Shown here: positions 1,693 through 54,350 of the stretch, piece after piece
Layout of the letters: each line of letters starts with the position of its first letter
Numbering within the stretch: the stretch's first letter is position 1
Sequence record: PQ306574.1
DNA from: Escherichia phage vB_EcoM_PTE-Eco09
Direction: 5' to 3' (one strand)
DNA length: 64,000 bases
The notes under the pieces: model-generated
The model's database searches: none
Told to the model about the DNA's origin: nothing
What the model saw: the letters and a program-made list of their open reading frames with translations, nothing else
Position numbers and translations under genes: made by a program

Positions 1693-4635
1693 TTAATTCT
1701 TTTTAAGTTCCGCTAGTTCAGCTTTAACGGCTTTCAATTCTTCGCTCATTTCCTGAAACGCCTTAATTAAAAGAGCGTTGACAGCGGAGTTAGAAATTGT
1801 TAAGATCTCTTCTGGATTATCTGGATCGCCGATCTTAGAAGTTGTTACGGCTTCCGGCAATTCTTTTTCAAGATCCTGAGCAATAATACCAACTTCATGA
1901 GCAATGACAGTACGGTCGGTTAAAGATTTAACCTTGTCATAGGTGTATACCGTCAAGCGATTAACTTTATCGGTTGCATTCTCTTTATACTCTTCCTTGT
2001 TGATTTTAAGGCGAGCATCAGAACGAATATACACATCGTTAAAGTTACCATTGCGACCAGCTTGGAAATCACCGGAGGCGTTAAAGTCAAAGTTTGTGGT
2101 ATGAATATGAAGACGTGCCATAGCATTAGTAATAACACCACTAGGAACGTGTACACCCATTGCTGCGATGTGGTCGAAACCCCATTTGGTCGCTTTCCAT
2201 ACGTTATATGCGGAAGTTTGAGCATTAGGACAATCAACCAATAAGCCAGCAGCGCGAGTTTTCCATTCTGACCATGCACCACCTTGTACTTCTCCGCGAA
2301 TCAGGCCATTACCATCACCGGATACAGTGCCAGATTCCAACTGGATCATTTTATCCGCAAATTTCCACGCCTGGGCTTGTTTCTGACCACGGAAGCGAAT
2401 AACACCAGCATCATCGCAGTACATCAAGCCTAACTCTAAACCGTTTGGATCTCTAAACCAGATGTGCTTATTGCCAGTGCGTTTAAACTCAATATCAGCA
2501 CCGTTCAGGGTAATATTACCGCCAGTGTGAATTGCTTTAGGCTTAACAGTACCATTAATGCCAAACTCGATTAATTCAGTACCCGGACCACCCGCACGTT
2601 GAGTATACCAATGCCAGCCGCTTTCATCAGCACATTCAAATACTTGTTTACGAGCATCAGCGCCCCATGCACGAATATTGAAACTAGAAGTAGCTGTACC
2701 CTTACCCCAGCGAATCAGACCAGCAGATTCCAAATCACCGAAGAATTTAGTTTTAATCGCACCAGTTGCTAAAGTACGTTCAGTGGTGAAGTGAGCACCT
2801 TTACTATCTTCAAGCTGTATAACGTTATCACGAGCGTTATTGCTATCGCCCCAATGACTCAAACGGAAATAGTCGCGGGATTGTCCAGCACCAGCATCAA
2901 ATGTTAAATATTGGCCTTTAATGTATGTGTTTCCAGCAAAACGAGCAGCACGACTTGCACGTTCTAAGACTAATGCACCTTCTTTACCATCACCACCCAA
3001 AGTAACATTACCGCTACCCAGATTGTAAGTGAATGGACGATAGCCGTTCCAACCACCAAATTTATCATTTTCGGCAGTAGACAGAAGATATACGTTTTGA
3101 CCATCATTACGCCAGAATGCACCATAGTTACCGTAAATCATACGGAATGCATCACTGTTAGCAGCTACATATTGACCATTGGTGTATACAATTTTTGTTT
3201 TTCCTGTAGTCAAATTTACTTGTCCACTACCTTCCAAATCAAATGAGTTAGCACCAACATCATTACGCCACACAAAACCATCACTAGTACCATCCGCATG
3301 ACCGATATAACCACTACGTTGGTTTTTACCATCACGACGATCCCACCACGCCATATATGCAGCTTGACCAGTCTGTCGATGTAAAGTCATCGCATTACCA
3401 CCACCGTGCAATTCCATTTTACCAGTAATTACATATCCTTTATAATTACCCGGTATTGCACTATTAGAATCAATTCTAATAACTTCTGTAGAATCTGTAG
3501 CACCAGTAGCAAGACGATATACAGCACCCTGAACGGTTTCATGCCAGGTCATTTCATTATAGTTACTACGGAATTTACGAATATATTTTCGTCCAGTACC
3601 CCTATCATTACTCAAGTGAACAATATCATAACTGTTTTGTGTGTTATCGTCAAAACTCAACACACCTCGTTTGTTTTCGGTGTTGAAAAGAGTTACAGCA
3701 CGACCGCCAATAACATTATCACCAGCAGGACGTTCAGCAACAAAATCTGGAACGTCATGAACTACCAGATTAACACCAACACTTTTACCAAATTCAACAA
3801 TAACGTTATCAGTGTAACGCTGATATTTCACATAGATATCATAGTTATCACCAGAAGTATTAACAGCCAAAACATCAAATGATTTGTTTGTATTTCGGCG
3901 ATATGCAATAACGTTAACACCTTTAGGGCGACCATTTCCACTGCGAATAACAATTTCTACAATATCAACTTGATCGTATGCAGTAACGTTATATCCGTTA
4001 CCGCCATGAATACGGAAAAATACGCTAAGACCGTTTTGTGGAATCATTGCAGTTGCTAATTTAAAATAGCCTTCAACGATATCACTAGGAGATGTAGCAA
4101 GTTTAACGTTCTTAACAAACATACGGTCAACTTCTTGTTTGCTATAGACGTTCAATTCTCCTGGAGTTGGTTTATCACCTTCGTGATACATTTTATAGCT
4201 AAATGCTTTTTGACCTTCTCTATTATAGCCATAGGTTTCAACACGAGATCCAGCAGACGCATAACGGAAAGTAAATCCGCGACCGTGCGCTTTACCGGCA
4301 GAATGAGGAACGTTAAGAGTTAGATCCCTGAGTCCATCTTGACCATTGGTACGGAAAGCACCAAAGTAGTTAAGATCTCTCGCTGTCTGGTCTTCCAAAT
4401 AGTTAGCTGTTTTACTTAAGATATAATTATTACCTTTAACCTTACCCGCCATTGTAACATCGCGGTCATACACCGGAGGACAACTTAAATTGATAATATC
4501 ACCGGAATCATTTTTAGTAAGAAGATATTGATCCGCAAGGTTGATTGCCAATTCCCCCGGATTCATCGTACTAGCATCCGGTTTACGACCTTTAGTGCTA
4601 GTGCGTTTAAATTGGATTCTGCTTAAATCTGCCAT
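1693..4635 (-). CDS. 37: long tail fibre distal subunit gp37 with C-terminal intramolecular-chaperone (peptidase S74-like) domain
   Basis: 980 aa; N-terminus MADLSRIQFKR…GELAINL matches T4 gp37 N-terminus; C-terminal ~110 aa carry SDARLK…GIIAQDL…coiled-coil typical of self-cleaving chaperone domains of endosialidase/T5 pb1 type. Confidence 0.85.
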   Translation of the reverse strand: MADLSRIQFKRTSTKGRKPDASTMNPGELAINLADQYLLTKNDSGDIINLSCPPVYDRDVTMAGKVKGNNYILSKTANYLEDQTARDLNYFGAFRTNGQDGLRDLTLNVPHSAGKAHGRGFTFRYASAGSRVETYGYNREGQKAFSYKMYHEGDKPTPGELNVYSKQEVDRMFVKNVKLATSPSDIVEGYFKLATAMIPQNGLSVFFRIHGGNGYNVTAYDQVDIVEIVIRSGNGRPKGVNVIAYRRNTNKSFDVLAVNTSGDNYDIYVKYQRYTDNVIVEFGKSVGVNLVVHDVPDFVAERPAGDNVIGGRAVTLFNTENKRGVLSFDDNTQNSYDIVHLSNDRGTGRKYIRKFRSNYNEMTWHETVQGAVYRLATGATDSTEVIRIDSNSAIPGNYKGYVITGKMELHGGGNAMTLHRQTGQAAYMAWWDRRDGKNQRSGYIGHADGTSDGFVWRNDVGANSFDLEGSGQVNLTTGKTKIVYTNGQYVAANSDAFRMIYGNYGAFWRNDGQNVYLLSTAENDKFGGWNGYRPFTYNLGSGNVTLGGDGKEGALVLERASRAARFAGNTYIKGQYLTFDAGAGQSRDYFRLSHWGDSNNARDNVIQLEDSKGAHFTTERTLATGAIKTKFFGDLESAGLIRWGKGTATSSFNIRAWGADARKQVFECADESGWHWYTQRAGGPGTELIEFGINGTVKPKAIHTGGNITLNGADIEFKRTGNKHIWFRDPNGLELGLMYCDDAGVIRFRGQKQAQAWKFADKMIQLESGTVSGDGNGLIRGEVQGGAWSEWKTRAAGLLVDCPNAQTSAYNVWKATKWGFDHIAAMGVHVPSGVITNAMARLHIHTTNFDFNASGDFQAGRNGNFNDVYIRSDARLKINKEEYKENATDKVNRLTVYTYDKVKSLTDRTVIAHEVGIIAQDLEKELPEAVTTSKIGDPDNPEEILTISNSAVNALLIKAFQEMSEELKAVKAELAELKKN

Positions 4636-11346: not shown

Positions 11347-11928
11347 TTGTGTGAGGTGTTTGTTGTGGCAAAAACAAAATTTTGGGATATCGAGACACAG
11401 AAAGCGATAAAAGGTAGATTCTATCATGTCGATGGAATATTATACCATTTAAAGGATTCTGTAGCTGCTGGATTCCGAAAAGAAGGGTCCATATACAAAA
11501 AAGGTGATGTGGTAAGGGTATGTCTCCATAAAGAAGGATATTTATACTTTACATTTTACAACAATGGTCATAAACTTAATCTGTTTGTACATAGAGTTGT
11601 CTGGTTTTTAGAGTATGGTACTCAGGTTGAACGAATAGATCACATAGACCAAGACAAAACTAACAATAGACCGTCAAACATGAGAGAAGCAACCGAACAG
11701 CAAAATCAGTTTAACGTCTCAAAGAAAAAGGCTTGCCATAGCAAATATAAAGGTGTATCATTATCACCAAGCAAGAAAAAGCCGTGGAAGGCGTATATTG
11801 TTATCAATCGAAAGAATATACATCTAGGATACTTTGAGACAGAAGTTGAGGCGGCTAAGGCTTATGACCGTGCAGCACATGAAATAGTTGGCGAGTATGC
11901 TTATTTAAATTTTCCAAAAAGAGGATGA
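11347..11928 (+). CDS. HNH homing endonuclease with AP2 DNA-binding domain
   Basis: HNH motif (ERIDHIDQDKTNNRPSNMREATEQQN) plus AP2-like domain (YKGVS…WKAYIVINRKNIHLGYFETEVEAAKAYDRAA); track start is TTG, true start likely slightly downstream. Confidence 0.65.
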   Translation: MCEVFVVAKTKFWDIETQKAIKGRFYHVDGILYHLKDSVAAGFRKEGSIYKKGDVVRVCLHKEGYLYFTFYNNGHKLNLFVHRVVWFLEYGTQVERIDHIDQDKTNNRPSNMREATEQQNQFNVSKKKACHSKYKGVSLSPSKKKPWKAYIVINRKNIHLGYFETEVEAAKAYDRAAHEIVGEYAYLNFPKRG

Positions 11929-12122: not shown

Positions 12123-13070
12123 ATGACGTATAACCCATTTACAAAAACGACCGCTACACTTAATGATTTCTTCGATGATCCAGAAGATAAACTGCCGGAA
12201 GGTGTGCATTTGATTGATATGTCGCAGCTTATGATTGCTACTATCTCACATACCTTTAAACCGGAAGATCCTATTAATGAAGGTATGATCCGTCATCTTA
12301 TCCTTGACACCATGCGTTATAATATGACAAAATTCAAAGAGCAATACCCAATTACGGTACTTGCCTTTGATTCAAGCAAAGGTTACTGGCGACGTGATAT
12401 CGCCCCTTACTATAAACGCAACCGTAAGGAAAAACGAGACGCAGATCCGCGTGATTGGGAGATGATCTTTGCTGCGATCAATAAGATCACCGAAGAGTTT
12501 AAAGAGAACATGCCTTATCACGTTATTAAGGTTGACAAAGTTGAAGCGGATGATATAATCGCTGTATTAACTAAAAAGTTTTCTGTAGAAGGTCGCCAGG
12601 TGCTAATCAACTCCGGCGATGGTGACTACACACAGTTGCACAAATACAAAAATGTGAAACAGTGGGCACCAGTACAGAAAGCGTGGAAGAAATGCAAATA
12701 TGGTAGCCCTTACAAAGACCTTATGGTAAAATGTGTTAAGGGTGACGCAAAAGACGGTGTAGCTTCTATCAAGTGCCGTAGTGATTTCATTATCTCACGA
12801 CTGGAAGGAGAACGAGCTAAACCAATTGCAACCAAATGGTTAGAGCAAATTTTCGATGCCGAAGATCCAAAGTCTTTGATGACAGAGGAAGAAGCACGAC
12901 GCTTTGACGAAAACCGCGAACTTATTGATTTTGAATTTATTCCTGATAACATCGAATATGAAATTTTGTTAGCATGGGAAAAATCTAAACCAGCACCACG
13001 CGGTAAAATTTATAACTATTTTGTAACAAATGCGTTAGTTAAAATGTTGCAGAAAATTGGTGAGTTCTAA
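12123..13070 (+). CDS. rnh: RNase H (5'-3' exonuclease / flap endonuclease)
   Basis: 315 aa; colinear similarity to T4 RNase H (SGYWRRD, YKKNR, YEADD, DGDFTQLHKY-like, KQW-P, NVASVK-like, RSDF, EGER, IDF-YIPDNI, PRGKIY-YF). Confidence 0.9.
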   Translation: MTYNPFTKTTATLNDFFDDPEDKLPEGVHLIDMSQLMIATISHTFKPEDPINEGMIRHLILDTMRYNMTKFKEQYPITVLAFDSSKGYWRRDIAPYYKRNRKEKRDADPRDWEMIFAAINKITEEFKENMPYHVIKVDKVEADDIIAVLTKKFSVEGRQVLINSGDGDYTQLHKYKNVKQWAPVQKAWKKCKYGSPYKDLMVKCVKGDAKDGVASIKCRSDFIISRLEGERAKPIATKWLEQIFDAEDPKSLMTEEEARRFDENRELIDFEFIPDNIEYEILLAWEKSKPAPRGKIYNYFVTNALVKMLQKIGEF

Positions 13071-13080
13071 GGGTTGACAC

Positions 13081-13680
13081 ATGAAAGAACTTGAATTAAA
13101 ATACTATGCACACTCACAAATTGGCGTCGAAACCATCTGTGATTTGTGGGTGGCAATGTATGACGGGTACAATCTCTTAGACCGAGATAACATATTAAAA
13201 CACGAATTTTATTATGATACCGAAGATCATGCGCTACGTCAAAAAGGAATTTATGCACGACTTGACTGTAGAAAATCAGAGATCATGGTCAAAATGGGTG
13301 ATAATGAATCTGGACTATTCAACCGCGAGGAAATGACATTTTCAAATTGGGATGAGTTCGTCCATTTTATTGATAGTCTAGGGGTAAACTCCGACTATAT
13401 CACTGCAATAATGCAAGTAATGACATATCGCAAGTCATTGACTCTAGATATGGGTTGTGGTATAGTGGAAATGTGCAAAGACACTTTCTATTATGGCAAA
13501 GTAGGCGAAGGATTGGGAAACACTGCTCATTATGAACTTGAGTTCGAGTTAAAATCAGGTGATGAAAAAGCACTTGACATTATCCGAGAAATGATGCTAG
13601 AATATGTTGGTGACGATTTAAGTCCTAGCGAAATTTCAAAAGCTGAACGTGGTTTTCAATTAATGACGAAAGAGGGTTAA
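13081..13680 (+). CDS. CYTH-like (triphosphate tunnel metalloenzyme) domain protein
   Basis: 199 aa; N-terminal ExExK (MKELELKY) and C-terminal acidic ELEFELK motifs typical of CYTH; inserted between rnh and dsbA. Confidence 0.5.
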   Translation: MKELELKYYAHSQIGVETICDLWVAMYDGYNLLDRDNILKHEFYYDTEDHALRQKGIYARLDCRKSEIMVKMGDNESGLFNREEMTFSNWDEFVHFIDSLGVNSDYITAIMQVMTYRKSLTLDMGCGIVEMCKDTFYYGKVGEGLGNTAHYELEFELKSGDEKALDIIREMMLEYVGDDLSPSEISKAERGFQLMTKEG

Positions 13681-13685
13681 ATATT

Positions 13686-13961
13686 ATGACTGAACAGAAA
13701 AAAGAAAAAGTAGTATTCGATGAAAATGTACACGGAAATACCCTGGCACAACTGATTAAAGAAGCCAGCGATCAGAAAACCATTCAAGAAGCATATGGCG
13801 ATAAGATCAAAGAGATCAAACAGCGTGCTAAAGAAGAATTAGGCGTAGATGGTAAAATGTGGGGCATTCTGTTTAAACTGTATCACCAGCAACAGCGCGA
13901 AACCTTCGAAGCAGAACGCGACGAAGCGGTAGAACTCTATGATCGGGTGTTCAATGCTTAA
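13686..13961 (+). CDS. dsbA: double-stranded DNA binding protein DsbA
   Basis: 91 aa; matches T4 DsbA (FDE-HG, FIKEASD, RAKDELGVDGKM, VELYD-VF). Confidence 0.8.
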   Translation: MTEQKKEKVVFDENVHGNTLAQLIKEASDQKTIQEAYGDKIKEIKQRAKEELGVDGKMWGILFKLYHQQQRETFEAERDEAVELYDRVFNA

Positions 13962-14208: not shown

Positions 14209-14217
14209 GGGGTATGT

Positions 14218-15987: not shown

Positions 15988-16015
15988 TTGACATGCTTAT
16001 GTGGTAATGTATAAT
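15988..16015 (+). promoter_or_regulatory. sigma70-like early promoter with conserved leader
   Basis: TTGACA-N16-TATAAT then GCACACATCGAAACA…GGAGG leader. Confidence 0.5.
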
Positions 16016-16045
16016 GCACACATCGAAACAATGGAGGATAAAAAT

Positions 16046-17260
16046 ATGTTAGTACGTCAAGCGCATGAAATTGAATGGACTAAGGAGAAACATAATTGTA
16101 GAGCGAAAAGCCCAACAGATTTTTATGGTAAAATTTTAGAAATATGTAAAACAGAAAATTTAGTTTTTGTCGGCTTTGTTGGGGAATGGGAAGGAAACAA
16201 AACAAAAATAAAACTTATCTGCGAACATGGTCATGAATGGATATGTTCGATAGATAAATTTGTAAGTAAAGGAACAAGATGTTCTCATAAACAATGTAAA
16301 GGTAAACGAATATCTAAAAAATTGTCTATATCCGAAACGGAATACAAAACGAGAATTTTAGAAATATGTGAAACTGAAAATCTAATTTTCTTAGGTTTTG
16401 TTGGTGAATGGAAAGGGTGTGATACTAAAATTCGCATAAAATGCAAATACGGTCATGAATGGGATGTATCTATATATAGCTTCACAAAAATGAATACCAG
16501 ATGCCCTACATGCGCAGGACAGAACAGGACAAAAGACGAATACAAAACGAGAATTTTAGAAATATGTGAAACTGAAAATATAATTTTCTTAGGTTTTGTT
16601 GGTGAATGGAAAGGATGCCGCACAAAAATAAAACTTAGCTGCAAACACGGTCATGAATGGATATCTTCCATATTATGTTTTGTGTATCAAAATACTCGCT
16701 GTCCTGTATGTGTTGGTAGATTGTCTATCGACGATAGAATGATACAGATTAATCAAGTTTGCAATTCTTTAGGTTATGTAATAATTAAGATCCACGAAGA
16801 ATGGAAAAACACAGAAACTAAAATTGATGTTAAATGTTTATGTGATTATATATGGACAACAACAATACATAGAGTCATACATGGGACTACAGGTTGCAGA
16901 AAGTGTGCTACACATGGATACAATACAAAAAAATCGGGGACTCTTTATATACAGAAATTAACCAACGATGATTCCTTTGTTGGTGTGAAATTTGGAATAA
17001 CAAACAGAGACACGAATGAACGAATGAAAAACCAATCATCAAAGTCTAAATTCGACCATGAGATCTTTTATGAATTGACTTTACAAGACGGTCAAAAGAT
17101 CTTAGAATTAGAGAACAAGATCAAGAAAGCGATGAAAGGTAAAACTTCCTATATCTCAAAAGAAGATATGCCGGATGGCTGGACCGAAACAGTAGCGCCG
17201 TCTGAATTGAGCACTATCATGTATATCGTAAAAACTTTTGAAAAAGAGTTGACAGCGTAA
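16046..17260 (+). CDS. hypothetical protein with four tandem Cys/His-rich repeats and a C-terminal T5orf172/GIY-YIG-like domain
   Basis: Four ~70-aa repeats (TRILEICETEN-IFLGFVGEWKG…K-GHEW…TRCP-C) then GTLYIQKL…VGVKFGITNRD…ERMK; start set at ATG after GGAGG. Confidence 0.45.
   Translation: MLVRQAHEIEWTKEKHNCRAKSPTDFYGKILEICKTENLVFVGFVGEWEGNKTKIKLICEHGHEWICSIDKFVSKGTRCSHKQCKGKRISKKLSISETEYKTRILEICETENLIFLGFVGEWKGCDTKIRIKCKYGHEWDVSIYSFTKMNTRCPTCAGQNRTKDEYKTRILEICETENIIFLGFVGEWKGCRTKIKLSCKHGHEWISSILCFVYQNTRCPVCVGRLSIDDRMIQINQVCNSLGYVIIKIHEEWKNTETKIDVKCLCDYIWTTTIHRVIHGTTGCRKCATHGYNTKKSGTLYIQKLTNDDSFVGVKFGITNRDTNERMKNQSSKSKFDHEIFYELTLQDGQKILELENKIKKAMKGKTSYISKEDMPDGWTETVAPSELSTIMYIVKTFEKELTA
16111..16740. 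repeat. in-frame tandem DNA repeats (~210 bp units, 3-4 copies)
   Basis: Units beginning near 16120, 16333 and 16540 are highly similar; copies 2 and 3 are near-identical over about 80 nt. Confidence 0.7.
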
Positions 17261-43984: not shown

Positions 43985-44914
43985 TTAGAATAACCTAGTA
44001 ATAGAGTTGACTATCCTACCACCAACACCCTGTAATCTTGACAATGCACTACCAGCAAAGGTCAACGAACTTTTTTTACCCTCACCAACAGTATTTTGAA
44101 TAAGATTTATTGCCTTATCCTCAATCCATTCTCGCGCGGCTTGCTCTCCTACTGCACCAGTTTGCATAGAACGATATGCGAAAGTAACATCGAATGTTGT
44201 GATCTCGTTGTTATTTTCATAACTCAATTCAGGAGAACTAACACCAACTGGAATACATCCACTAAACATCATAATTGTATGTGGTACACCCATTCGGTTA
44301 TGTAAGTTAACCTGAATATCGGCTTCAACGTCAACAGGAAGCGCACGAAGCCCTGTAACGGGGTCTTCTACTGAGTTAACCCAATCCTGCATCGCACGGT
44401 AATTTGATGCGCTAGCGTCCATTCTAAAGCTCAACACAATCGGATCAAAATCACGTCCGGTAATTCGAATGTTTGGCGCATTGTGGTTACGGTCCATTTC
44501 ATAATTCAATCTGTTTTCTGGAACCTTAACAGCATACACCAGAAGACCGCTTGTCTTATATGCCATATTGAACCAATCCATGACATATGTACCAACTTCA
44601 AATTGCCCCAAAAGAGATTGAACTACTCGTGATGACATTGCACCCAACAAATATTTTTTAACACCGGACGAGCTAACAGCTTTACGCACACCACCAATAG
44701 CAAGATTTGCTACCGCGTCAGTATAATCCCCACGAGTAATACCAAAATAATCATTTAGTTTACCTGGTATAATATCATATACAGCACCACCAAAATTTTC
44801 TAGAATTTGCTGCGTCTTGCTACTAGGAACGGTGGCAAACGCCACCGAAAATAGATTAGAACGCTGGAAGTCTAGATTAGCGGCTTGTTCATTGAAATCG
44901 TTTAAATCAAACAT
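43985..44914 (-). CDS. 54: baseplate tail-tube initiator gp54
   Basis: 309 aa; assignment by size and synteny (first of six-gene baseplate block next to alt). Confidence 0.65.
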   Translation of the reverse strand: MFDLNDFNEQAANLDFQRSNLFSVAFATVPSSKTQQILENFGGAVYDIIPGKLNDYFGITRGDYTDAVANLAIGGVRKAVSSSGVKKYLLGAMSSRVVQSLLGQFEVGTYVMDWFNMAYKTSGLLVYAVKVPENRLNYEMDRNHNAPNIRITGRDFDPIVLSFRMDASASNYRAMQDWVNSVEDPVTGLRALPVDVEADIQVNLHNRMGVPHTIMMFSGCIPVGVSSPELSYENNNEITTFDVTFAYRSMQTGAVGEQAAREWIEDKAINLIQNTVGEGKKSSLTFAGSALSRLQGVGGRIVNSITRLF

Positions 44915-45972
44915 TATAATTGACTCCCAAATACAGTACCACGGGAAAGAGTAAGAATCTCCCTGAACGATACTTCCAAAACAAAAGTGCTCGGTAAATT
45001 AGGAGATATTGCAAGCCCACCAAATTTACCATCTGGGGATTTATCAAGTCTTACGTTAGAAATTTGCGCTGGTCCGAAAACATCACTTCTTCCCTCATAT
45101 TCAGAACGTTTTCCAAAGTTTGATATCATCCATATAGTAGGATTCGATACAGTGGTTACGTTTGTCAAAAAGTCAGTTATTCCCTCAAATACAGTACCCG
45201 TTGTATCAGCACCTTCTGGAACCGTTTTAGAAAGAATTGTCTTTTTATACCATGCGTCAACTTCCGCTTTTAATTGTTTTGCGGTACTGGAAATACCACT
45301 AGACCCATAAGATAACTCTACAAACGTCTCATAGATAATCAGGATATTTCGTAGGTCTTCAATACTGCGTGGGGTTAAGTTCCAAACATAGTTTTTAGTT
45401 CTAGGATCTGCCCCAGCATACATGCTACGAGCGGTATTATAGATTTGCTCGTTTTTATCCGCAAGATAACCACCCGTCAAACTTTCCAACCCACCAAATA
45501 CTGCGGTCGATGCCATAGTAGATAATGCGCCAGAAATAGTGCCACCGCCACGCGTAACGAGAGATTCACCAACATCATTAAACTTGTGACTTACCGCATC
45601 AACATCTGATTGACTACGAGGAAGTAGAATATTAGCAACGGCCTCACGTTCAAATCCAACTCCCCTATTACTCGTATATTCTGCCTTACCACCATTAGAA
45701 ATAGATAGACCAAACCCCTTGATCGTGTTTCCTTTATTTCTGAAATCTCGTAGAGAGTCGGTAACACGACTTTTATAATCATAGGCAGTAAACAACAAGC
45801 CGTTATTATAAAGGTCATTTATGTATATACCAGATGAATCATTGCCGCTAGCTCGTTCAGATGGAAATTGAGCGGTTAAAGTTGACTTGTCTTGTTTTTG
45901 AGTAAAACCAGCAGACGCTTTGACGCCTTTGTTAAAGGCGTCTTTAGCATCATCCAAAATTTGAATTTTCAT
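44914..45972 (-). CDS. 48: baseplate tail-tube cap gp48
   Basis: 352 aa; synteny and size. Confidence 0.65.
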   Translation of the reverse strand: MKIQILDDAKDAFNKGVKASAGFTQKQDKSTLTAQFPSERASGNDSSGIYINDLYNNGLLFTAYDYKSRVTDSLRDFRNKGNTIKGFGLSISNGGKAEYTSNRGVGFEREAVANILLPRSQSDVDAVSHKFNDVGESLVTRGGGTISGALSTMASTAVFGGLESLTGGYLADKNEQIYNTARSMYAGADPRTKNYVWNLTPRSIEDLRNILIIYETFVELSYGSSGISSTAKQLKAEVDAWYKKTILSKTVPEGADTTGTVFEGITDFLTNVTTVSNPTIWMISNFGKRSEYEGRSDVFGPAQISNVRLDKSPDGKFGGLAISPNLPSTFVLEVSFREILTLSRGTVFGSQL

Positions 45973-45973
45973 A

Positions 45974-47659
45974 TTAAACTATTCCTTTCTGTAATAGACC
46001 GGGAGAAGGTGTACTAGTTTGAGGTCTGGTTATCTGAACCGTTCTATTATTGTTATAGATCTGCGTGTTTGCAACGTTGGCAGTATTAGTAACAGTATTA
46101 TCGTTTCTAATATTTTGTAGCTGACCTTGTTCTATAGACTTAGCTTGTTTTGCTGTATCGGTTTCATCCGGTGGCGGTGGAGTAACAGCAGGTGCGTTCT
46201 TAGTAATACGAATCTTGTCGTATTGGTCAAGAAGTTCTTTAATTTTCTGTCTGTCTGTAGAAAGAAGGTCTGGATTGTCCAACACTTTACGCTGTTCATT
46301 AACATCATTATCAAGCGCAGCTAATTTATCTGGAAGAGTACCCGGTTTTACGGTCTTTAACATAGAGATATTTCGAACCATGTCACCCTCAACGTCAATA
46401 GTGATATTGCTACTCTTTCTATAGGCATCATCACTAACAGATTTTAGCTCTTTCATCCTAGTAACTTCATATTTTTCCTGTTCAGTTAAAATAGGCTCTA
46501 CTTGCATACTTGCCATACTGCTATATTGCTGATTAGCAAGTTTTGCTTGAGTCTGCATACCTTTCTGAATTTCTTCTTCTTTCTTCATACGGGCGTACAA
46601 CTCTTTTTCTCGTTCATCCATTTTAACACCGCTACGCGCTTGTGCTTGTTTTAAAGCACCATATTCCAGAGTATCAGCCAACGAACCCATACCAGGAATA
46701 GAACGAAGTACCGACGCAAGACCTTTAGTTATTATTCTATCAAGCTGAAAAAACGCATCAACCAACACATCAGCCAAACCACTAACAAGCTCGGTTACAA
46801 GTTCACCATATTCTTTATTTTCCCAATAGTTTTGTATACTTTCAACGGAAGTTAAAACTTTATCTAATGTAGAACCCCAATTTCCTGCCTTCCTCATAAA
46901 CTCGCCAAAGTTCTCGTCAAACTGCTTACTCCAGTATCTAAAATGAATCATTAGAGTATCAACAGCAACAACGATCCCCAGAAGAATAGCTCCCCATTTG
47001 ACAACCTCAAACATTGCGGTCACCGTCATTTTAAACAGCATAGAGAATATCTTGTTGGATACACCAACAGTCTCTTTAAATCCACCGCGAACCGCTTTGA
47101 GTAGCAGTTGCATATTATTGTCACGGTCGCTATTCTTATCTTTCTTTTTCTTTTTATTATCGTCTTTAGGCTTCTTAGGTAACGTAGGGTAGTTATCGTT
47201 ATTTTGTTGTTCCGGTACACTCGGCAAAACTGGTTGCGGTGATGGCATAGTTTGTTCCGGCTGTTTATCATCCTTGATGGCATTTTCGATTGCATCGAGA
47301 CCACTGGTGATCTTAGAAACGACGCTGAATCGACGTTCCATCATGACACCAAAACCGCGTAATTTCTCATTCATTTGAGAAGAAAAGCTATTCAACTTCT
47401 GCAATTCTTCATAGGTTTTTTGAGTATTGCCAGCGGTAGATTGTGTGTTTTCTGCCGTTAATTCGTTGGCTGCGGTGTTATCCTCCACCGCTCCAATAAC
47501 TTCATTAGATTTTTGTTCTACTGTCTCCGCCACCAATTCACTTGCAGCTTGAAGATTATCAATAGAATCAAGTTTATCTAATTTGTTAAGTTTATCAATC
47601 GGGTTTTCTTCCGCTTCCTTGCGCATCCCGCGAAATGATGTTAATGCGTCATTATTCAT
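45974..47659 (-). CDS. 29: baseplate hub subunit gp29
   Basis: 561 aa; internal TM segment and low-complexity Lys-rich stretch; synteny and size. Confidence 0.65.
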   Translation of the reverse strand: MNNDALTSFRGMRKEAEENPIDKLNKLDKLDSIDNLQAASELVAETVEQKSNEVIGAVEDNTAANELTAENTQSTAGNTQKTYEELQKLNSFSSQMNEKLRGFGVMMERRFSVVSKITSGLDAIENAIKDDKQPEQTMPSPQPVLPSVPEQQNNDNYPTLPKKPKDDNKKKKKDKNSDRDNNMQLLLKAVRGGFKETVGVSNKIFSMLFKMTVTAMFEVVKWGAILLGIVVAVDTLMIHFRYWSKQFDENFGEFMRKAGNWGSTLDKVLTSVESIQNYWENKEYGELVTELVSGLADVLVDAFFQLDRIITKGLASVLRSIPGMGSLADTLEYGALKQAQARSGVKMDEREKELYARMKKEEEIQKGMQTQAKLANQQYSSMASMQVEPILTEQEKYEVTRMKELKSVSDDAYRKSSNITIDVEGDMVRNISMLKTVKPGTLPDKLAALDNDVNEQRKVLDNPDLLSTDRQKIKELLDQYDKIRITKNAPAVTPPPPDETDTAKQAKSIEQGQLQNIRNDNTVTNTANVANTQIYNNNRTVQITRPQTSTPSPGLLQKGIV

Positions 47660-48177
47660 GATAGGAGATCCAATATGTTAATGCCACCATAGATAGTACC
47701 TTCTGGAGTATCTAAGGCAACGGTTTTTCTTAATCCTGTAGCCCAATTCATAATAAACGCTGGGAATTTATGAAAGTCTACACTAGGATCGTGATAGTGA
47801 TTGCTTAGGAAATTTGCATCATCATGTGTATATTCAGAAGAGAGCATAGGAGGCGTGAACTTGAATTTCTCGCCATTAAATTCAAACTCCGATTCTGTAC
47901 AGATATAAACATCATCCAATCGCAAACCATCTTTTTCTTCTAGGCATTTGCCATTAAAAGAGCATAAGTGAAGCATAACATATTCTGCTTCGGCTGCATT
48001 TAGTCCTGGGTGAATGGAATCAAGTAGAATTTTTAAAGTATCTTCACAGCTACGAACATCTTTTAATAATCTGTGCTGTTTGATCCCCATTTTAGGGATC
48101 TTGATATGTTTCCCGTTAACGGTAATATTTTTAACAGGAACAACAAATTTTAGAGATGGTTTAGTATCAGTCATCAT
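47656..48177 (-). CDS. 28: baseplate hub distal subunit gp28
   Basis: 173 aa; synteny and size. Confidence 0.6.
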   Translation of the reverse strand: MMTDTKPSLKFVVPVKNITVNGKHIKIPKMGIKQHRLLKDVRSCEDTLKILLDSIHPGLNAAEAEYVMLHLCSFNGKCLEEKDGLRLDDVYICTESEFEFNGEKFKFTPPMLSSEYTHDDANFLSNHYHDPSVDFHKFPAFIMNWATGLRKTVALDTPEGTIYGGINILDLLS

Positions 48178-49283
48178 ATTTTACCTTCAAATTGTACATC
48201 TTTCAAAATCTCACTATGACTAAACATGTGAATATGTGTTAATGATTGTTCTCGACAAATTTCATGAACAACTTCATCGACAATAAAATCGGTGCGAATT
48301 TGCTGTTTAGCATCAAAGAATCTTAGCTTTTGTGCTGGACGTAGAGAGAAATTACCATGACACACCGCGCTGGCATAGGAATCAAATTGTCCAAAAGTTG
48401 CCAGTTTAGAACCTTCAAGATACGCGTTTTTATATGTCAAATTACCATAAGCGCCACCATGAGCAAAATGAGCTATGTTATCACCATTACCCACTACAAT
48501 CTTGTTATACTGCTTCGTGATGAAATCAATTGTTGTGTAAGTGACATTAGCGAATGAGTTTTTTGTTACCGCATTACTCTTAGTATCCCACTCAAAGTTA
48601 AACACCATCAAATATTCGCTCATATCCATGAATTGTCCTGTTAGGGTAGGCTCGGTGACGATAGCAGGAATTGGATCACCCTGCATCAGTAGTTTATGAT
48701 CGGTGATCTTGATCCCGTCAAAGTCCTCCCAACAATAAACGAACGATTCGTTGTCTACACTCTGACCATGCGTTCTCACATATTCAAAATAATCGTTAAC
48801 GGTGTTCACCCACGGACACTTAGGAATGAATACGTTTACTCCCGTAATGGCAGGTTTCCACAATGGAACATTTTTATAGATCGCGTCTATCATACTGGTG
48901 ATGTTATTCACCGCGTTAGTGTCGGTAGCGCGAGAAAACTTTAGATTCAGCGTTTCATGGTAGCTCTTTAACTGGAAGGTTATTATATTATCGGCCTTAG
49001 AGTCAACCGTCACATTACTATGCGCGATACCATATATCCGGTTGAATACTTGTTCAGTATTAGCCGTTGATAATGAAATTTGTATAATCTCTGTTCCTGC
49101 TAATTTCGTATGAAGCGCCTTAGAATCATATATTTGTAACAATCCTTCATTGACACCACGAAGAGAATCACGTAATGTCATTGTAATGAAGGTAGCACCC
49201 AATTCAACAAATCTATTTTCCAAAAATGCTTCATAATCTTGATATAGCTTTATAGAGACGTTAGGAAATCCGGGTCTTTGCAT
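48174..49283 (-). CDS. 27: baseplate hub subunit gp27
   Basis: 369 aa; synteny and size. Confidence 0.65.
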   Translation of the reverse strand: MQRPGFPNVSIKLYQDYEAFLENRFVELGATFITMTLRDSLRGVNEGLLQIYDSKALHTKLAGTEIIQISLSTANTEQVFNRIYGIAHSNVTVDSKADNIITFQLKSYHETLNLKFSRATDTNAVNNITSMIDAIYKNVPLWKPAITGVNVFIPKCPWVNTVNDYFEYVRTHGQSVDNESFVYCWEDFDGIKITDHKLLMQGDPIPAIVTEPTLTGQFMDMSEYLMVFNFEWDTKSNAVTKNSFANVTYTTIDFITKQYNKIVVGNGDNIAHFAHGGAYGNLTYKNAYLEGSKLATFGQFDSYASAVCHGNFSLRPAQKLRFFDAKQQIRTDFIVDEVVHEICREQSLTHIHMFSHSEILKDVQFEGKI

Positions 49284-50034
49284 TATTTGCCTCTTTAACG
49301 TCTTTTTCTACTAATGTTAGGGCGATATTTCTTTCTACTGGCAACATATCCATTAGATCACCAAACGAATAACTACTTTTCACAAGCAGATGATTAATCC
49401 TATAAAAAGTAAAAAGCTCATCTGGATTAAGGATTAGTTTATATAACCCCAACAAATCGGTATATCTTAATTCGTGTGTATCACAGCATTTGATCTTCTG
49501 CTCAATCAAAATGGTGTGCATTTTCTTTACTATGGTTTCAAATTCTGAGAAGGATATCGAATCTATAACCTGATCGCGCACTTCCTCCGGCAATTCGGTC
49601 CATGCATACTCATTATCACCATCAGAAACGCTCTCAATCGCTTCTAGAAACGTTTTTGCGTAGTCGGTTGATGGTTTCACATACTTAAACTTAATTTTAA
49701 GTCCAGCCGTTTCTAGGACGATTGGTTGCAGTGCCGGAACAGCAAGGTTTAACAATATTCGCTTTTCCTTACCGCAGGTCGGACACTTAAAAGAAAGTGG
49801 TAATTTTGTTTTACCTATTGAGCTAGTAAAAACGTTCAGGAAAATATATTCTCGGAATATCGGGTCCACATCAGGGTATAATTCCTCCAACAATTCATCT
49901 AGAATCAATTGTTCCTCCGATGGATTGCCCTTCATATCAGCCGAAACTAAAAGAAAATCACGATAATCTTTTACAGTGAATGGCTTAAAACGTTTAGCCC
50001 CGCCATCTGGCATTTTAATTCGTATAACATTCAT
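49261..50034 (-). CDS. 51: baseplate hub assembly protein gp51
   Basis: 257 aa; synteny and size. Confidence 0.6.
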   Translation of the reverse strand: MNVIRIKMPDGGAKRFKPFTVKDYRDFLLVSADMKGNPSEEQLILDELLEELYPDVDPIFREYIFLNVFTSSIGKTKLPLSFKCPTCGKEKRILLNLAVPALQPIVLETAGLKIKFKYVKPSTDYAKTFLEAIESVSDGDNEYAWTELPEEVRDQVIDSISFSEFETIVKKMHTILIEQKIKCCDTHELRYTDLLGLYKLILNPDELFTFYRINHLLVKSSYSFGDLMDMLPVERNIALTLVEKDVKEANNAKTRIS

Positions 50035-50054
50035 AATACAATCCCCCTTTCGGG

Positions 50055-50062
50055 TATTTATA
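50055..50062 (-). promoter_or_regulatory. T4-type late promoter (TATAAATA) for gene 51 block
   Basis: TATAAATA on minus strand about 21 nt upstream of gene 51 ATG, in divergent region with gene 26. Confidence 0.5.
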
Positions 50063-50103
50063 AAATACTAAATAATTTCTATGTATCATAAGAGGTGTAT
50101 ACT

Positions 50104-50733
50104 ATGCAACATATTTTCAAGATTAAGTTAGGTGATAAGACGATCACCGCTAGAGCATTCACCTATGAAGAATTTCAGAAACTAGTAGAATATAAGAGCA
50201 CCGGACGTCTTAAGGAAGCGGTATTAGACATTATCAATGATTGCACAGGAATTAACGCATTAGAGTTAGAGAAATGCGAGGCTGAATACCTATTCCTTAT
50301 GCTATGGTGTCATAGCCTAGCAAAAGAAAATTTCAAATCTACGTGGGTGTGTGGAGTATGTAACAAAGAGAAAGAATATAATCTTAATGTTGAACGGACA
50401 CAGATCCCAGACACAGAACCATATCTGTTAGATTTAGGAGGGGTTAAAATCAAATTCCGTCCTCCGCGTTTTACAGAAGATGACGATATCATGCAGATGG
50501 TAATTGCTTGTATTGATTATATTGTCATTGATAATCAGGAATTTGATATTCATGACCTAAACGAACAAGACTTCGACACCATACTAAGTATGTTGACAAC
50601 AGAACACGTAGAGACTATCATCGATGAATTGACAGGTCCACAAATCACACTGGCAGTACCGATCAAGTGTGATTGCGGGGAGTCCGGTATTCATTCGATC
50701 AGGGGTCTTAATGAATTTCTGACGATCCTTTGA
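50104..50733 (+). CDS. 26: baseplate hub subunit gp26
   Basis: About 209 aa; synteny and size; start at ATG. Confidence 0.6.
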   Translation: MQHIFKIKLGDKTITARAFTYEEFQKLVEYKSTGRLKEAVLDIINDCTGINALELEKCEAEYLFLMLWCHSLAKENFKSTWVCGVCNKEKEYNLNVERTQIPDTEPYLLDLGGVKIKFRPPRFTEDDDIMQMVIACIDYIVIDNQEFDIHDLNEQDFDTILSMLTTEHVETIIDELTGPQITLAVPIKCDCGESGIHSIRGLNEFLTIL

Positions 50734-50740
50734 GGTAGTT

Positions 50741-51127
50741 ATGACAACAGTTAACCAGATGTACACTGACTTAAACCTAGAGTTTAAGCTAGCATGGAAC
50801 AACGATATTAAAAAGAACACAGGGATTAAAGCGATTAAAGATTCCATATTGCTGATCATAACCACGGCTAAGGGATCTCGCCCGTTTGATCCGAACTTTG
50901 GATGCGATCTAAACCGCGCACTATTCGAAAACATCAACCCATTGACTGTGGATACCTTGTCTAAGAACATAACCGAATCGATAAGAAACTACGAACCACG
51001 AGTAAAAAGGCTTGACGTAGACGTCACTCCGCAGTATGATGAGAACTCGATTATAGTAACGGTTTATTTTTCTGTTATAGACAATCCAGATGAGTTAGAA
51101 CAACTTAGAGTTAGATTGTCTAAATGA
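50741..51127 (+). CDS. 25: baseplate wedge protein gp25 (GPW family)
   Basis: 128 aa; GPW/gp25-like pattern; T4 gp25 size. Confidence 0.75.
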   Translation: MTTVNQMYTDLNLEFKLAWNNDIKKNTGIKAIKDSILLIITTAKGSRPFDPNFGCDLNRALFENINPLTVDTLSKNITESIRNYEPRVKRLDVDVTPQYDENSIIVTVYFSVIDNPDELEQLRVRLSK

Positions 51128-51142
51128 TTGAGGTGTTTTATT

Positions 51143-51550
51143 ATGGATCTGAATGAACTAAAAGACCAGCTTGACGCTGACGTCAAGATCGACGCAACAA
51201 AGCTACAATGGGAAGCACTTAATAACCCTGTAGTTTACTCTAAATGGCTGCGTGTGTATAGTGAAGCAAAGCGCGAGATCATTGCGCTGGAAGCAAAGAA
51301 AAAGAAAGCCACAAAAAATAAACTTGACTTTTACACTAATCGTAGTGATGAATGGTGTAGAGTGGAGTACGCCACATCAGAATTGAAAGTTGTGATGGCG
51401 GCAGATGATGATATCCTACCATTGGATACAAAAATTGCTTATTATCAAATGGTTATGGATTTTGCTGGCAAGGCTCTTGATATAATCAAATCACGAGGAT
51501 TCGCGATCAAGAATGCTATAGAGTTGCGTATGCTTGAGTCTGGAAAGTAA
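51143..51550 (+). CDS. uvsY: recombination mediator UvsY
   Basis: About 135 aa helical protein right after gene 25 as in T4; start at ATG MDLNELK. Confidence 0.65.
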   Translation: MDLNELKDQLDADVKIDATKLQWEALNNPVVYSKWLRVYSEAKREIIALEAKKKKATKNKLDFYTNRSDEWCRVEYATSELKVVMAADDDILPLDTKIAYYQMVMDFAGKALDIIKSRGFAIKNAIELRMLESGK

Positions 51551-51580
51551 GACACTAAATATATGCAGGAGGAAGGATTT

Positions 51581-51754
51581 ATGACTTGTATTTGTGCTGT
51601 ATGTAAACAGCCAATCGAAATGGCGTTGGCTGTTAAAATCGAAAATCATGTTGTTCATCCGGGATATTGCGAAGAATTTGCAAGCCGGAATCATTTGAGC
51701 GAATCAAGTGCAGAAGAACAAGAACAACTGGTAGAAACTACTTTGATTCTCTAA
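51581..51754 (+). CDS. small Cys-containing protein (57 aa), position of T4 uvsY.-1/-2
   Basis: SD GGAGGAAGG then ATG; MTCICAVCKQP…. Confidence 0.45.
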   Translation: MTCICAVCKQPIEMALAVKIENHVVHPGYCEEFASRNHLSESSAEEQEQLVETTLIL

Positions 51755-51792
51755 AGGAATTTGTTGATAACCGATTTTAATTGGTTTATTTC

Positions 51793-51817
51793 GCCCCATC
51801 AATGATGGGGCTTTTTT
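51793..51817 (+). terminator. rho-independent terminator
   Basis: CCCCATC-AAT-GATGGGG followed by TTTTTT. Confidence 0.6.
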
Positions 51818-51832
51818 GTATCCGATGATTTA

Positions 51833-52069
51833 TTAAAAATCCTCTTCCGGCTCCTCTTCCGGCTCATTTTCACTCTCTAACTGTTTTCTTCGACCTGCGA
51901 TTGCATCACGAATAGAGATATCATCTGACGGTTTGAGATCGGTCTCTTTCTTGCGCTTTTCATAATATTTTTCAAGCTCGTCCAAACCTTCCATAGTATT
52001 ACAAGAATAGATTTTATTCATGAAACCATCAATAACCGCCTCGGCTAAGAATCGTTTAAAACTAATCAT
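51833..52069 (-). CDS. small acidic protein in the position of T4 UvsW.1
   Basis: 78 aa ORF directly downstream of uvsW on the same strand. Confidence 0.5.
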   Translation of the reverse strand: MISFKRFLAEAVIDGFMNKIYSCNTMEGLDELEKYYEKRKKETDLKPSDDISIRDAIAGRRKQLESENEPEEEPEEDF

Positions 52070-52111
52070 TTTTAATCTCCGTAAAAATAAGGGGCATACA
52101 GCCCCTATTTA

Positions 52112-53668
52112 TTAAATTTCGATTGTTTTGGTTGAATAATCGAATTTATCTTCGTTGTACACTCGAACCCTTTCTATGCCGTGCTTAGTTGCGTAATTGA
52201 GATGACTATATTGCTTCTTAGCGGTCTTACTCTTTGTCTTTATACCCAACAAATCAATAATATCCCATACATAAGCAATATCCTTAGAACCATGCTTACG
52301 CAATGCACGACCAATACTTTGACGAACAATAGTAGACTCTTTGACAGGATGACCGAAAATTACATGGTGTAAGTTCTTGATAGAAACGCCAGTAGAGAAA
52401 ACGCCGTAGGAGGCGACGCAAATGATCCCGGTCTCTCCTTCCGCTAATTTTTTGAACTCGTCTCGTTCCGCAGTCTTAACCCCACCATCAATGTAGTAAA
52501 CCTTATCATGTACCTTCTGTAAGGCTTCATACATCATTTTTCCGTGTTTAGTGTTGCGAAACATTAAAAAGACGTTTTCGTTCTTCTTAGCGAGTTTTAG
52601 TGCCAAATTACACACAAACTTATTCCGTCTGCCGTGTGAAGTTATATATTTGATCTCTTCCGCGTATTCTTTCCCCTTAATAGCCGCGCATTCATCATCA
52701 GCATATTTTAGGAATAGACAGTTGATTTTCAGTTTTGTAACTTGTCCTTCATCCATAAGACGATCAATACTTACGATCCTAGATATATCTCCAAACAATC
52801 CAACGTATTGCAAAGCATTACACTTACCCTCACGAGGTGAACCAGTCATACCAATCTTAAATTGGCAATGAGTCATATCATTTACAATATTTTGAAGGTT
52901 TTTAGCGGTTGCTTTGTGACATTCATCGACAATAACCATTCCGTATTGCTGGAACCACTCTTTAGGCATCTTACATGCAGATTGCCAAGTTGAAACAGTT
53001 ATCAATCGTTCCCCCGGATGTTTTTGGCTACCACTCATCATTGTATGGATAGCCTCAAAAGGGAATAGCCTATAATCAATGAAGTCATCACGCATCTGGA
53101 GAACAAGAGAAGTAGTTGGAACAATGATTAACACCTTTCCCTCGTAGTTTTCCAGATACCATCGAGATAATAAACAAGCAATCAAACTTTTACCAGCAGA
53201 AGTAGGCAAAACTAACATTCTACGACGATTATGTATACCCTGAAATACAGCTTCACTTTGATACCAGTGAGGGGTGATCTTATTAGCGCCAGAATATATC
53301 GCCAACGAACCGATCCAACTGTCAATGTCTTCTTTAGTGATTTTCTCCTTTTCCAGAAGACGGGGATCAATCCAAACAGAATAGCTCATATTCTTAGCAA
53401 AGATACCCAAAGTTTTGATCAGTCCGATAGGAAGAGTGTTTTCATAGGTAAATAGCCGGATTCGCCCATCCCATTGCCCGTAGCGATAACGAGGATTAAA
53501 TCTTGCACCTTCAATCTCAAAAGAAAAATAGTCTCGTAGTTCCATAGATATTGAATCAGAGCATTCAATTTTAACAAAACTATAATTCATAAAATGCACA
53601 TGAATATCTTGCATCACATCACCTTTTAACAAGTTTTCCAAGAACAAAACCATCAGGAGGGGTGTCAC
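52112..53668 (-). CDS. uvsW: SF2 DNA helicase UvsW
   Basis: 518 aa; Walker A (LPTSAGKS), DExH (VDECH), helicase C-terminal motifs; T4 UvsW size and neighbourhood. Confidence 0.8.
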   Translation of the reverse strand: MTPLLMVLFLENLLKGDVMQDIHVHFMNYSFVKIECSDSISMELRDYFSFEIEGARFNPRYRYGQWDGRIRLFTYENTLPIGLIKTLGIFAKNMSYSVWIDPRLLEKEKITKEDIDSWIGSLAIYSGANKITPHWYQSEAVFQGIHNRRRMLVLPTSAGKSLIACLLSRWYLENYEGKVLIIVPTTSLVLQMRDDFIDYRLFPFEAIHTMMSGSQKHPGERLITVSTWQSACKMPKEWFQQYGMVIVDECHKATAKNLQNIVNDMTHCQFKIGMTGSPREGKCNALQYVGLFGDISRIVSIDRLMDEGQVTKLKINCLFLKYADDECAAIKGKEYAEEIKYITSHGRRNKFVCNLALKLAKKNENVFLMFRNTKHGKMMYEALQKVHDKVYYIDGGVKTAERDEFKKLAEGETGIICVASYGVFSTGVSIKNLHHVIFGHPVKESTIVRQSIGRALRKHGSKDIAYVWDIIDLLGIKTKSKTAKKQYSHLNYATKHGIERVRVYNEDKFDYSTKTIEI

Positions 53669-54350
53669 CGCGTTTCACGACCTTATTAACTACCCCGTTG
53701 TTATACCACTTACTACCAGTATGAAAATCGTTAAGCCTTGCTACACGCTCGGCGAGAGCACCGGACTCACGATCCTTTTGGACTTGTCTTAGACACATTT
53801 CCCTGTTAGCGGCTTTGCGTTCCTCCGTCCATTCTATATGGTCCCACCCAACATGTAAATTACCCTTGACGAATCCGTCAGGTGGAGTTTCTCCATCTCG
53901 AACTCGTATAGATTTAACACCGTCGTTGTACCATGTGCTGCCGGAAACACTATCTCGCATACCTACTATTGCTTTTTTTAGTTTTCCAGTTTTCATATCA
54001 CGTTCTACGCGCTCTTTGGCAGAAGAAGACATTTTAGCGCGTACAGAGTCTGAGTATACCTGGTCTCCGTCATAACGACCGCCAGTAACTACATTATAAT
54101 AATTGGGATCTTTTACAATGTCAACAGTGACAAGTTCTTTTTCGTATAGGTAAGCATCTTGCTCGGTATCAAACATTTTTAATATGCGCTTCTCGAAGTT
54201 CTCAATGCCATATTTTTCAAATGCAGCACGAAGAAGGTCACCAGACCCCATATATCCATCATGCATATTGTTAGTAGAATGTTTACCTATATACAATTTG
54301 CCGTTTACAAGATTCTTTATCTCATAAACATAATGAAATCTTTTAGCCAT
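53619..54350 (-). CDS. GIY-YIG homing endonuclease (Seg-like) with two C-terminal DNA-binding repeats
   Basis: N-terminal YVYEIKNLVNGKLYIGKH; two ~30-aa repeats (WYNDGV…RDGETPPDGFVKG); 3' end overlaps uvsW start. Confidence 0.7.
   Translation of the reverse strand: MAKRFHYVYEIKNLVNGKLYIGKHSTNNMHDGYMGSGDLLRAAFEKYGIENFEKRILKMFDTEQDAYLYEKELVTVDIVKDPNYYNVVTGGRYDGDQVYSDSVRAKMSSSAKERVERDMKTGKLKKAIVGMRDSVSGSTWYNDGVKSIRVRDGETPPDGFVKGNLHVGWDHIEWTEERKAANREMCLRQVQKDRESGALAERVARLNDFHTGSKWYNNGVVNKVVKRGDTPPDGFVLGKLVKR

Follow-up and report, generated by a model that had tools for sequence, protein, structure and literature searches.

The window studied here, a stretch of 64,000 nucleotides from Escherichia phage vB_EcoM_PTE-Eco09 (sequence record PQ306574.1), is part of a Krischvirus (RB49-like) genome and carries an open reading frame (ORF) of 199 codons plus stop at 13081..13680 (+). 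As judged from profile and model comparisons, its product is a stand-alone CYTH protein, that is, a triphosphate tunnel metalloenzyme (TTM), of the YgiF lineage and without the CHAD domain. By analogy with YgiF, it probably acts as a two-metal, Mg2+/Mn2+-dependent triphosphohydrolase. The enzyme superfamily is well known; this member of it is so far uncharacterised.

The affiliation itself is not new. In the GenBank record of phage RB49 the corresponding ORF, RB49ORF244c, is annotated as "similar to P45267, P30871, HI1598, ygiF", and Nolan et al. (2006) list "RB49ORF244c CYTH domain 0.0026" (PMC1524935). The CYTH/YgiF-like identity has therefore been known since 2003-2006, and an earlier note on this DNA, made from the letters alone and proposing a CYTH-like protein between rnh and dsbA, rediscovers an existing annotation. 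RB49ORF244c is the same gene at the same position with 84% protein identity, and the allele in the window is of the phi1/FL37 type, not the RB49 type. The protein matches PHROG 14893 (E 4e-133), a family labelled "unknown function". A few newer GenBank records name the product 'inorganic triphosphatase' or 'adenylate cyclase', and the label 'hypothetical protein' is also in use. What is new here is that a cyclase is excluded by motifs, that the tunnel lining differs from that of the bacterial proteins, and that at least six anciently diverged core alleles lie inside near-identical flanks.

Fold, active site and tunnel lining

The protein matches the Pfam CYTH profile (PF01928) with 29.5 bits (E 8e-7), above the gathering score of 23.2, which agrees with the CYTH fold proposed in the earlier note, and 10 of 13 phage alleles match this profile individually. 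Profiles were needed because a single-sequence search of the PDB sequences gave marginal matches only (YgiF, E 1.2). With a phage-only profile, the sole PDB match was E. coli YgiF (5a60), aligned end to end at E 2e-5, and the comparison of the phage profile with 46 bacterial YgiF-like proteins using hhalign gave a probability of 99.7% and an E value of 1e-25. The AlphaFold2 model, built from an alignment of 53 sequences, has a mean pLDDT of 95.4 and a pTM of 0.89, with eight long strands and a helix at the C-terminus (residues 187-195 by DSSP), i.e. a predicted beta-barrel tunnel with a plug helix. When this model was compared with the PDB using Foldseek, YgiF (5a60) again ranked first (E 2.6e-13, TM 0.79) and nearly all of the top 50 matches were TTM proteins: YgiF was followed by plant TTM3, Bacillus CYTH proteins, SaTTM and thiamine triphosphatases, and, at lower ranks, by class IV cyclases and the RNA triphosphatases of capping enzymes. 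The predicted structure points the same way as the profiles, and neither of the two outcomes that the earlier note had named as refutations, the lack of a CYTH profile match and a fold other than a beta-barrel tunnel, was observed. No Pfam match to the CHAD domain was found in the protein, the chain of which stops at residue 199, right after the plug helix, and the NCBIfam search gave no meaningful match.

YgiF (5a60/5a61) is therefore the best match in both sequence and structure, with 25% identity over the whole domain. Features found in both proteins are the Glu of metal site 1, the acidic patch of metal site 2, the residues Lys69, R81/E83 and R126 of YgiF, the plug helix with its SKAxRG motif and, in the alignment favoured below, the catalytic Arg. 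The phage protein differs in that it consists of 199 residues instead of 433, as it lacks the CHAD domain, in that it has, in the same alignment, an Asp for the second Arg of the RxR motif and a Tyr two residues before the catalytic Arg, in a beta3-beta4 hairpin shorter by two residues, in about 11 tunnel-facing positions, and in being phage-encoded within a replication gene block. The stand-alone YgiF-like CYTH proteins of Gamma- and Betaproteobacteria (about 200 residues, for example P0045) have the same length and architecture and show 27-31% identity to it; unlike the phage gene, theirs are chromosomal, beside PhoU-like/PHO4 and rsmD-like genes, and have the canonical A-L-R-x-R and T-L-K motifs. 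The stand-alone gammaproteobacterial proteins are likely the source lineage of the phage gene, and the PhoU-like/PHO4 neighbours fit a function of these relatives in phosphate or polyphosphate metabolism in the bacteria.

The residues of the phage protein were paired with those of YgiF by hhalign profile-profile alignment and by MAFFT. The features are as follows, in window coordinates:

13081..13680 (+), coding sequence, stop codon included, of the 199-residue stand-alone CYTH/TTM protein, orthologue of RB49ORF244c (ORF list, sequence, Pfam, PHROG, AlphaFold2, Foldseek)
13087..13101 (+), ExExK motif (E3, E5, K7) on beta1, invariant in phage and bacterial relatives; E3/E5 correspond to YgiF E4/E6 (metal 2)
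13252..13266 (+), Y58-A-R60-L-D62 on beta3 (hhalign, MAFFT, gapless DT spacing); in these alignments R60 corresponds to YgiF R56, and D62 replaces R58
13291..13293 (+), K71, paired in the alignments with YgiF K69, which binds the substrate and orients the first Glu; invariant among phage alleles
13324..13332 (+), R82-E-E84 on beta5, corresponding to YgiF R81/E83, tunnel-facing, invariant in the 53 aligned sequences
13429..13431 (+), R117, a basic tunnel residue corresponding to YgiF R126, invariant
13468..13482 (+), E130...D134 on beta7, corresponding in the alignments to YgiF E139/D143
13534..13554 (+), E152-L-E154-F-E156-L-K158 on beta8, with E154 opposite YgiF E160 (metal 1) and E156 opposite E162 (metal 2)
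13636..13665 (+), plug helix S186-K-A-E-R-G-F-Q-L-M195 (helical at 187-195 by DSSP); SKAxRG is common to YgiF (SKAARGY)

In YgiF, E160 binds metal 1, E4, E6 and E162 bind metal 2, R56 is catalytic and K69 binds the substrate (Martinez et al. 2015; PMC4641920). In the hhalign and MAFFT alignments, all of these metal-binding and catalytic residues have counterparts in the phage protein, namely E154, E3/E5/E156, R60 and K71, and the trio E3, E5 and E156 is the metal-site-2 Glu trio of the acidic-patch TTM hydrolases (YgiF, AtTTM3 and SaTTM type). Moreover, K7, R82/E84, R117, E130/D134 and K187/R190 also pair with YgiF and, like the residues named before, are invariant in the phage alleles and the bacterial relatives. 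As the earlier note had stated, the ORF opens with ExExK, found as E3-x-E5-x-K7 in its first residues MKELELKY, and this motif is invariant across the 53 aligned sequences. The acidic motif ELEFELK that the note placed at the end of the protein is present at residues 152-158, but 41 residues remain from there to the C-terminus.

The placement of the central Arg differs among methods: hhalign, MAFFT and the DT spacing put R60 at YgiF R56, whereas pairwise BLAST and HMMER put Y58 at R56 and R60 at R58. We favour the former, since the distance from DT to the first Arg is then the same, 13 residues, for YgiF, the closest bacterial relative and the phage protein, K71 stays opposite K69, and the two-residue deletion falls at the tip of the hairpin.

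The lining of the tunnel was compared between eight phage alleles and the 46 bacterial sequences. Several positions that are near-invariant in the bacteria are changed and fixed in the phages: A-L-R-x-R has become Y58-A-R60-L-D62, L-x-N on beta2 has become K40-x-E42, H/S has become F80, A has become C132, T-x-F has become V113-x-T115, G-x-V has become F136-x-Y138, and the T-L-K motif has become M-V-K-M. The second Arg of RxR, which is Arg in 46 of 46 bacterial sequences, is Asp (D62) in the phages. In total, about eleven tunnel-facing positions differ (K40, E42, Y58, D62, F80, V113, T115, C132, F136, Y138 and the K71 region), and the changes are kept across divergent phage alleles. Under the favoured alignment, Y58 is at the position of the substrate-stacking W/Y of the thiamine triphosphatases. 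Mammalian thiamine triphosphatase (5a64, 3bhd) has the same TTM fold as the phage protein and, in this alignment, would also have the aromatic residue of the W/YxRxR motif in common with it; in contrast to it, the phage protein has Asp for the second Arg of the motif, is nearer to YgiF in sequence and structure, and its Y58 is not universal. Because the changed tunnel positions are conserved across alleles and Y58 is at the W/Y position, the alignments weakly suggest a substrate other than free tripolyphosphate (PPPi), for instance a nucleoside triphosphate, a different organic triphosphate or a 5'-triphosphate end.

A further candidate activity is that of a class IV (CyaB-type) adenylate cyclase, which would make cyclic AMP (cAMP) or another cyclic nucleotide to manipulate the host. 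The name 'adenylate cyclase' is used for the product in three phage records, and class IV cyclases (CyaB; Yersinia pestis AC-IV, 2fjt/3n10) have the CYTH fold and the ExExK motif in common with it. They are defined, and set apart from the TTM and thiamine triphosphatase hydrolases, by three motifs (Vogt et al. 2021; PMC8233210): HF four residues before ExExK, a small residue (C/V/L) in place of the central Arg, and Ala where the ExE of beta8 has its second Glu. All three fail in the phage protein. The HF motif (HFxxxxExExK) is absent, as only M1 and K2 stand ahead of E3; an extension that could hold it is impossible, since an in-frame TGA at 13075-13077, two codons before the ATG, rules out a longer N-terminus. 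The central position is Arg (R60) in the favoured alignment or Tyr in the alternative one, and is small in neither. The second Glu of the ExE is kept as E156, and is Glu in all phage and bacterial sequences. In addition, the class IV structures rank far below YgiF, with a TM of about 0.5. The cyclase was therefore rejected as very improbable, and by the motifs the label 'adenylate cyclase' in the three GenBank records is probably wrong. Since the three cyclase motifs fail, the protein would be classed as a hydrolase by the same published criteria. The earlier note had supposed that the enzyme could produce or destroy a nucleotide signal; production does not agree with the failed cyclase motifs, destruction is consistent with the intact predicted hydrolase site, and nothing ties the protein to nucleotide signalling.

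Distribution and allelic structure of the gene

The ORF is a maintained protein-coding gene, core to the RB49-like genus, and not a chance ORF: it is kept in 58 phage records, the dN/dS between alleles (about 0.2-0.36) is well below 1, the Pfam score is above the threshold and the pLDDT of the model is high. The 3-kb region around it matches 58 phage records with 90-99.5% identity, all of them Krischvirus coliphages or Shigella phages, and tblastn with the protein returned the same 58 records, full-length and in the same slot in all; T4 lacks the gene. The only record with a non-intact gene is Escherichia phage vB_EcoM_G2494, where a frameshift, which is either a sequencing error or a real loss, leaves two annotated ORFs of 67 and 130 residues (gene at L007 1501..2096). 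The gene occurs in the same slot in distant T4-like metagenome contigs, with dsbA and 33 downstream, and with rnh upstream where the contig reaches. The scan of IMG/VR gave three close Krischvirus loci and nothing else. Among 1.8 billion representatives searched exhaustively with HMMER, only three phage-type clusters were found at E < 1e-30, the rest being cellular CYTH and CYTH-CHAD proteins, and the PHROG scan with YgiF and the bacterial relatives found PHROG 14893 only and no second related phage family. Other phages encode CYTH proteins of unrelated subfamilies; a CYTH protein is listed, for example, in phage Aeh1 (PMC1524935).

The gene does not diverge evenly along its length, and one further feature was defined from sliding identity, mismatch maps, synonymous sites and clustering:

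13110..13530 (+), diverged allelic core, residues ~11-149

Compared with Skers, L003 and L005, the DNA is 95-100% identical along rnh, dsbA and 33, and the identity falls to 40-65% at ~13110-13530, with sharp edges. Synonymous sites in the core are saturated (pS 0.7-0.85), whereas the last 50 codons have a backbone-like pS of 0-0.17. Clustering of the core gave six allele classes with about 40% amino acid identity between classes, and among the four Krischvirus classes the identity over the last 50 residues is 86-100%. In the core, Krischvirus alleles are no more similar to one another than to that of a phage with about 75% identical flanks, and the alleles are therefore ancient. Most likely, judging from the sequence comparisons, they were swapped through recombination in the conserved gene ends. 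Within the core, conservation is 0.80 at predicted tunnel-facing and 0.53 at outward-facing positions (Mann-Whitney p = 5e-6), and 16 of 35 tunnel-facing residues are invariant as against 0 of 36 outward-facing ones. As read from these alignments, the inner chemistry is held constant and the exterior is free to vary.

Two stronger interpretations of this pattern were considered and rejected. The allelic core is not specific evidence of an arms race, because about 27% of the window, when compared with Skers, consists of similar blocks of divergence or indels. Homing endonuclease genes, which promote local gene conversion, also lie near the gene. Likewise, a special constraint on the conserved 3' 150 bp of the gene is not needed, as 1-5 differences per 150 bp correspond to the backbone identity of 97-98%; the promoter-like site at 13574..13603 in this stretch is not required to account for its conservation.

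Mosaicism was also observed elsewhere in the window. A block of about 10 kb (44100..54400) has about 71-80% identity to Skers, compared with 92-98% for most of the window; its counterpart in Skers includes uvsW, uvsY and baseplate hub genes, so that the mosaicism in the genus is large in scale. The distal tail-fibre region (1731..4632) is partly alignable to Skers with about 70-73% identity, as expected for host-range determinants. On a much smaller scale, there is a short patch of clustered substitutions at the 3' end of rnh, 12930..12975 (+), where RB49, Skers and L017 differ from the window in largely the same pattern, which suggests two block-exchanged haplotypes.

Possible mechanism and roles

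In the mechanism that we propose by analogy with YgiF, the substrate triphosphate would thread into the eight-stranded beta-barrel, where E154 and the substrate would hold metal 1, and E3, E5 and E156 would hold metal 2. Metal 2 would activate a water molecule to attack the terminal phosphate, and R60 would assist the leaving group. K7, K71, R82, R117, K187 and R190 would bind the phosphates, and the C-terminal helix is predicted to plug one end of the tunnel. The analysis shows the gene, its family, the predicted fold, the conservation of the catalytic residues and the lack of cyclase motifs, whereas the activity, the timing of expression and the class of substrate are inferred.

What such a triphosphohydrolase would do for the phage may be answered in several ways, the likelihood of which we place in the order of plain inorganic triphosphatase, counter-defence enzyme and RNA 5'-triphosphatase. 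A tentative answer, which we hold to be somewhat unlikely, is that of a plain inorganic triphosphatase or a polyphosphatase for short chains (YgiF, NeuTTM-like), serving phosphate economy or the removal of PPPi during the burst of phage DNA synthesis. It accords with YgiF being the best match in sequence and structure, with the retention of all catalytic residues of the inorganic triphosphatases and with the PhoU-like and PHO4 phosphate-transport genes that adjoin the closest bacterial homologues; the substitutions in the tunnel would in that case be neutral or make up for one another, and K40 may do no more than offset the charge lost at D62. However, the host already has YgiF, and eleven tunnel positions have been changed and fixed, with the second Arg of RxR lost and three aromatic residues gained. 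A role in counter-defence, in which the remodelled tunnel would hydrolyse a triphosphate alarm or immune nucleotide (the dITP of Kongming, pppApp/(p)ppGpp, or 5'-ppp oligonucleotide messengers) and the variable exterior would reflect ancient, exchangeable alleles arising from an arms race with host sensors or inhibitors, is improbable. The conserved active site with its highly variable surface, the ancient alleles in near-identical genomes and the position among early-type genes would suit it, and hosts of the E. coli type have dITP as an established anti-phage messenger, for which no dITP-degrading phage enzyme has been reported (10.1101/2024.12.20.629578). On the other hand, PADLOC gave 0 matches for the protein, the literature search found no report of anti-defence activity for CYTH/TTM proteins, mosaic blocks are so common in the genus that the allele pattern is non-specific, and dN/dS is below 1.

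We consider it similarly doubtful that the protein is an RNA 5'-triphosphatase acting on pppRNA ends, either of Okazaki primers for the adjacent RNase H or of host or phage transcripts, which would thereby be primed for 5'-end-dependent decay. RNA triphosphatases of the TTM type, from fungi and large DNA viruses, have the same fold, and the gene lies directly beside rnh, which encodes the enzyme that removes RNA primers; but the capping-enzyme matches are much weaker than YgiF (E about 1e-4, TM 0.44-0.47), T4 replicates without such a gene, and the plug helix shuts one end of the tunnel in the predicted structure, like in the small-molecule TTMs.

Several points weigh against the reading of the protein as a two-metal triphosphohydrolase with a remodelled tunnel. 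The assignment of Y58, R60 and D62 depends on the alignment, and the BLAST/HMMER version loses the central Arg, which would weaken the case for a hydrolase. Inward and outward facing were assigned by strand parity anchored on the catalytic residues, not from coordinates, and in the most distant allele (P0121) Y58 is Val. Furthermore, PhoU/PHO4 beside the closest bacterial relatives would fit a plain inorganic triphosphatase, the split gene in G2494 may mean that the gene is dispensable in the laboratory, and the literature search found no characterised function for any bacteriophage TTM/CYTH protein. The same search found no gene-essentiality result for Krischvirus; HIDEN-SEQ covers other phages, not this genus.

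Once defined, the activity would explain the genus-wide retention of the gene in a core replication block in which T4 has no such gene, and would correct the labels 'adenylate cyclase', 'inorganic triphosphatase' and 'hypothetical protein'. Several RB49-like coliphages are used in phage therapy. If a counter-defence role were true, this would be the first CYTH-fold counter-defence enzyme, and no earlier one would directly destroy a messenger of the NTP type. With 199 residues, a high-confidence model and clear catalytic residues, the protein is a tractable candidate, and its natural alleles, which are about 40% identical in the core and have the same tunnel, suit the question of whether phages interfere with triphosphate metabolites or messengers.

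Neighbouring genes and minor observations

The ORF lies in the order rnh, CYTH ORF, dsbA, 33, 59, 32, and each of these neighbours has a Pfam match (gene 33: Trans_coact, 2e-26; gene 59: both Gp59 domains; gene 32: gp32, 1e-51). The two adjoining genes are:

12123..13070 (+), rnh, T4-type RNase H / 5'-3' exonuclease (Pfam RNaseH_C 2.6e-37, 5_3_exonuc_N 6e-18)
13686..13961 (+), dsbA, late-transcription dsDNA-binding protein (Pfam Phage_DsbA 5e-22)

In T4, rnh and dsbA are separated by 8 bp, with no gene in the gap. The CYTH ORF is thus an insertion relative to T4, and the earlier statement that it interrupts an otherwise T4-like rnh-dsbA-33-59-32 block holds. As only 10 nt separate the stop codon of rnh from its start codon, and 5 nt its stop codon from the start of dsbA, the ORF is probably co-transcribed with these neighbours in the rightward block for replication and late transcription. 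The Rfam scan of 11000-16500 gave no match.

Two near-consensus sigma-70-type promoter-like sites, each with 11 of 12 matches, were noticed on the plus strand at 13074..13102, overlapping the start codon of the CYTH gene, and at 13574..13603, inside its conserved 3' end and about 80 bp before dsbA. In the 3.9 kb scanned there are six plus-strand sites with at least 11 of 12 matches, and 24 sites with at least 9 of 12 on both strands, compared with 12.9 +/- 3.0 expected; the site at 14895 corresponds to the early promoter annotated ahead of gene 32 in RB49.

A homing-endonuclease ORF of 193 residues with HNH and AP2 domains lies at 11347..11928 (+), between gene 34 and the 61-residue ORF that precedes rnh, and is missing at that position in RB49 and Skers. 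Between 59 and 32, Skers has an HNH gene and T4 has segG. In addition, the ORF of 419 residues that follows gene 32, 16001..17260 (+), contains three to four internal repeats of about 65 residues (…ICETENLIFLGFVGEWKG…C-x-H-G-H-E-W…). The Skers gene at this position is annotated as a GIY-YIG nuclease family protein, and the RB49 counterpart, RB49ORF239c, had a weak DUF723 match in 2006.

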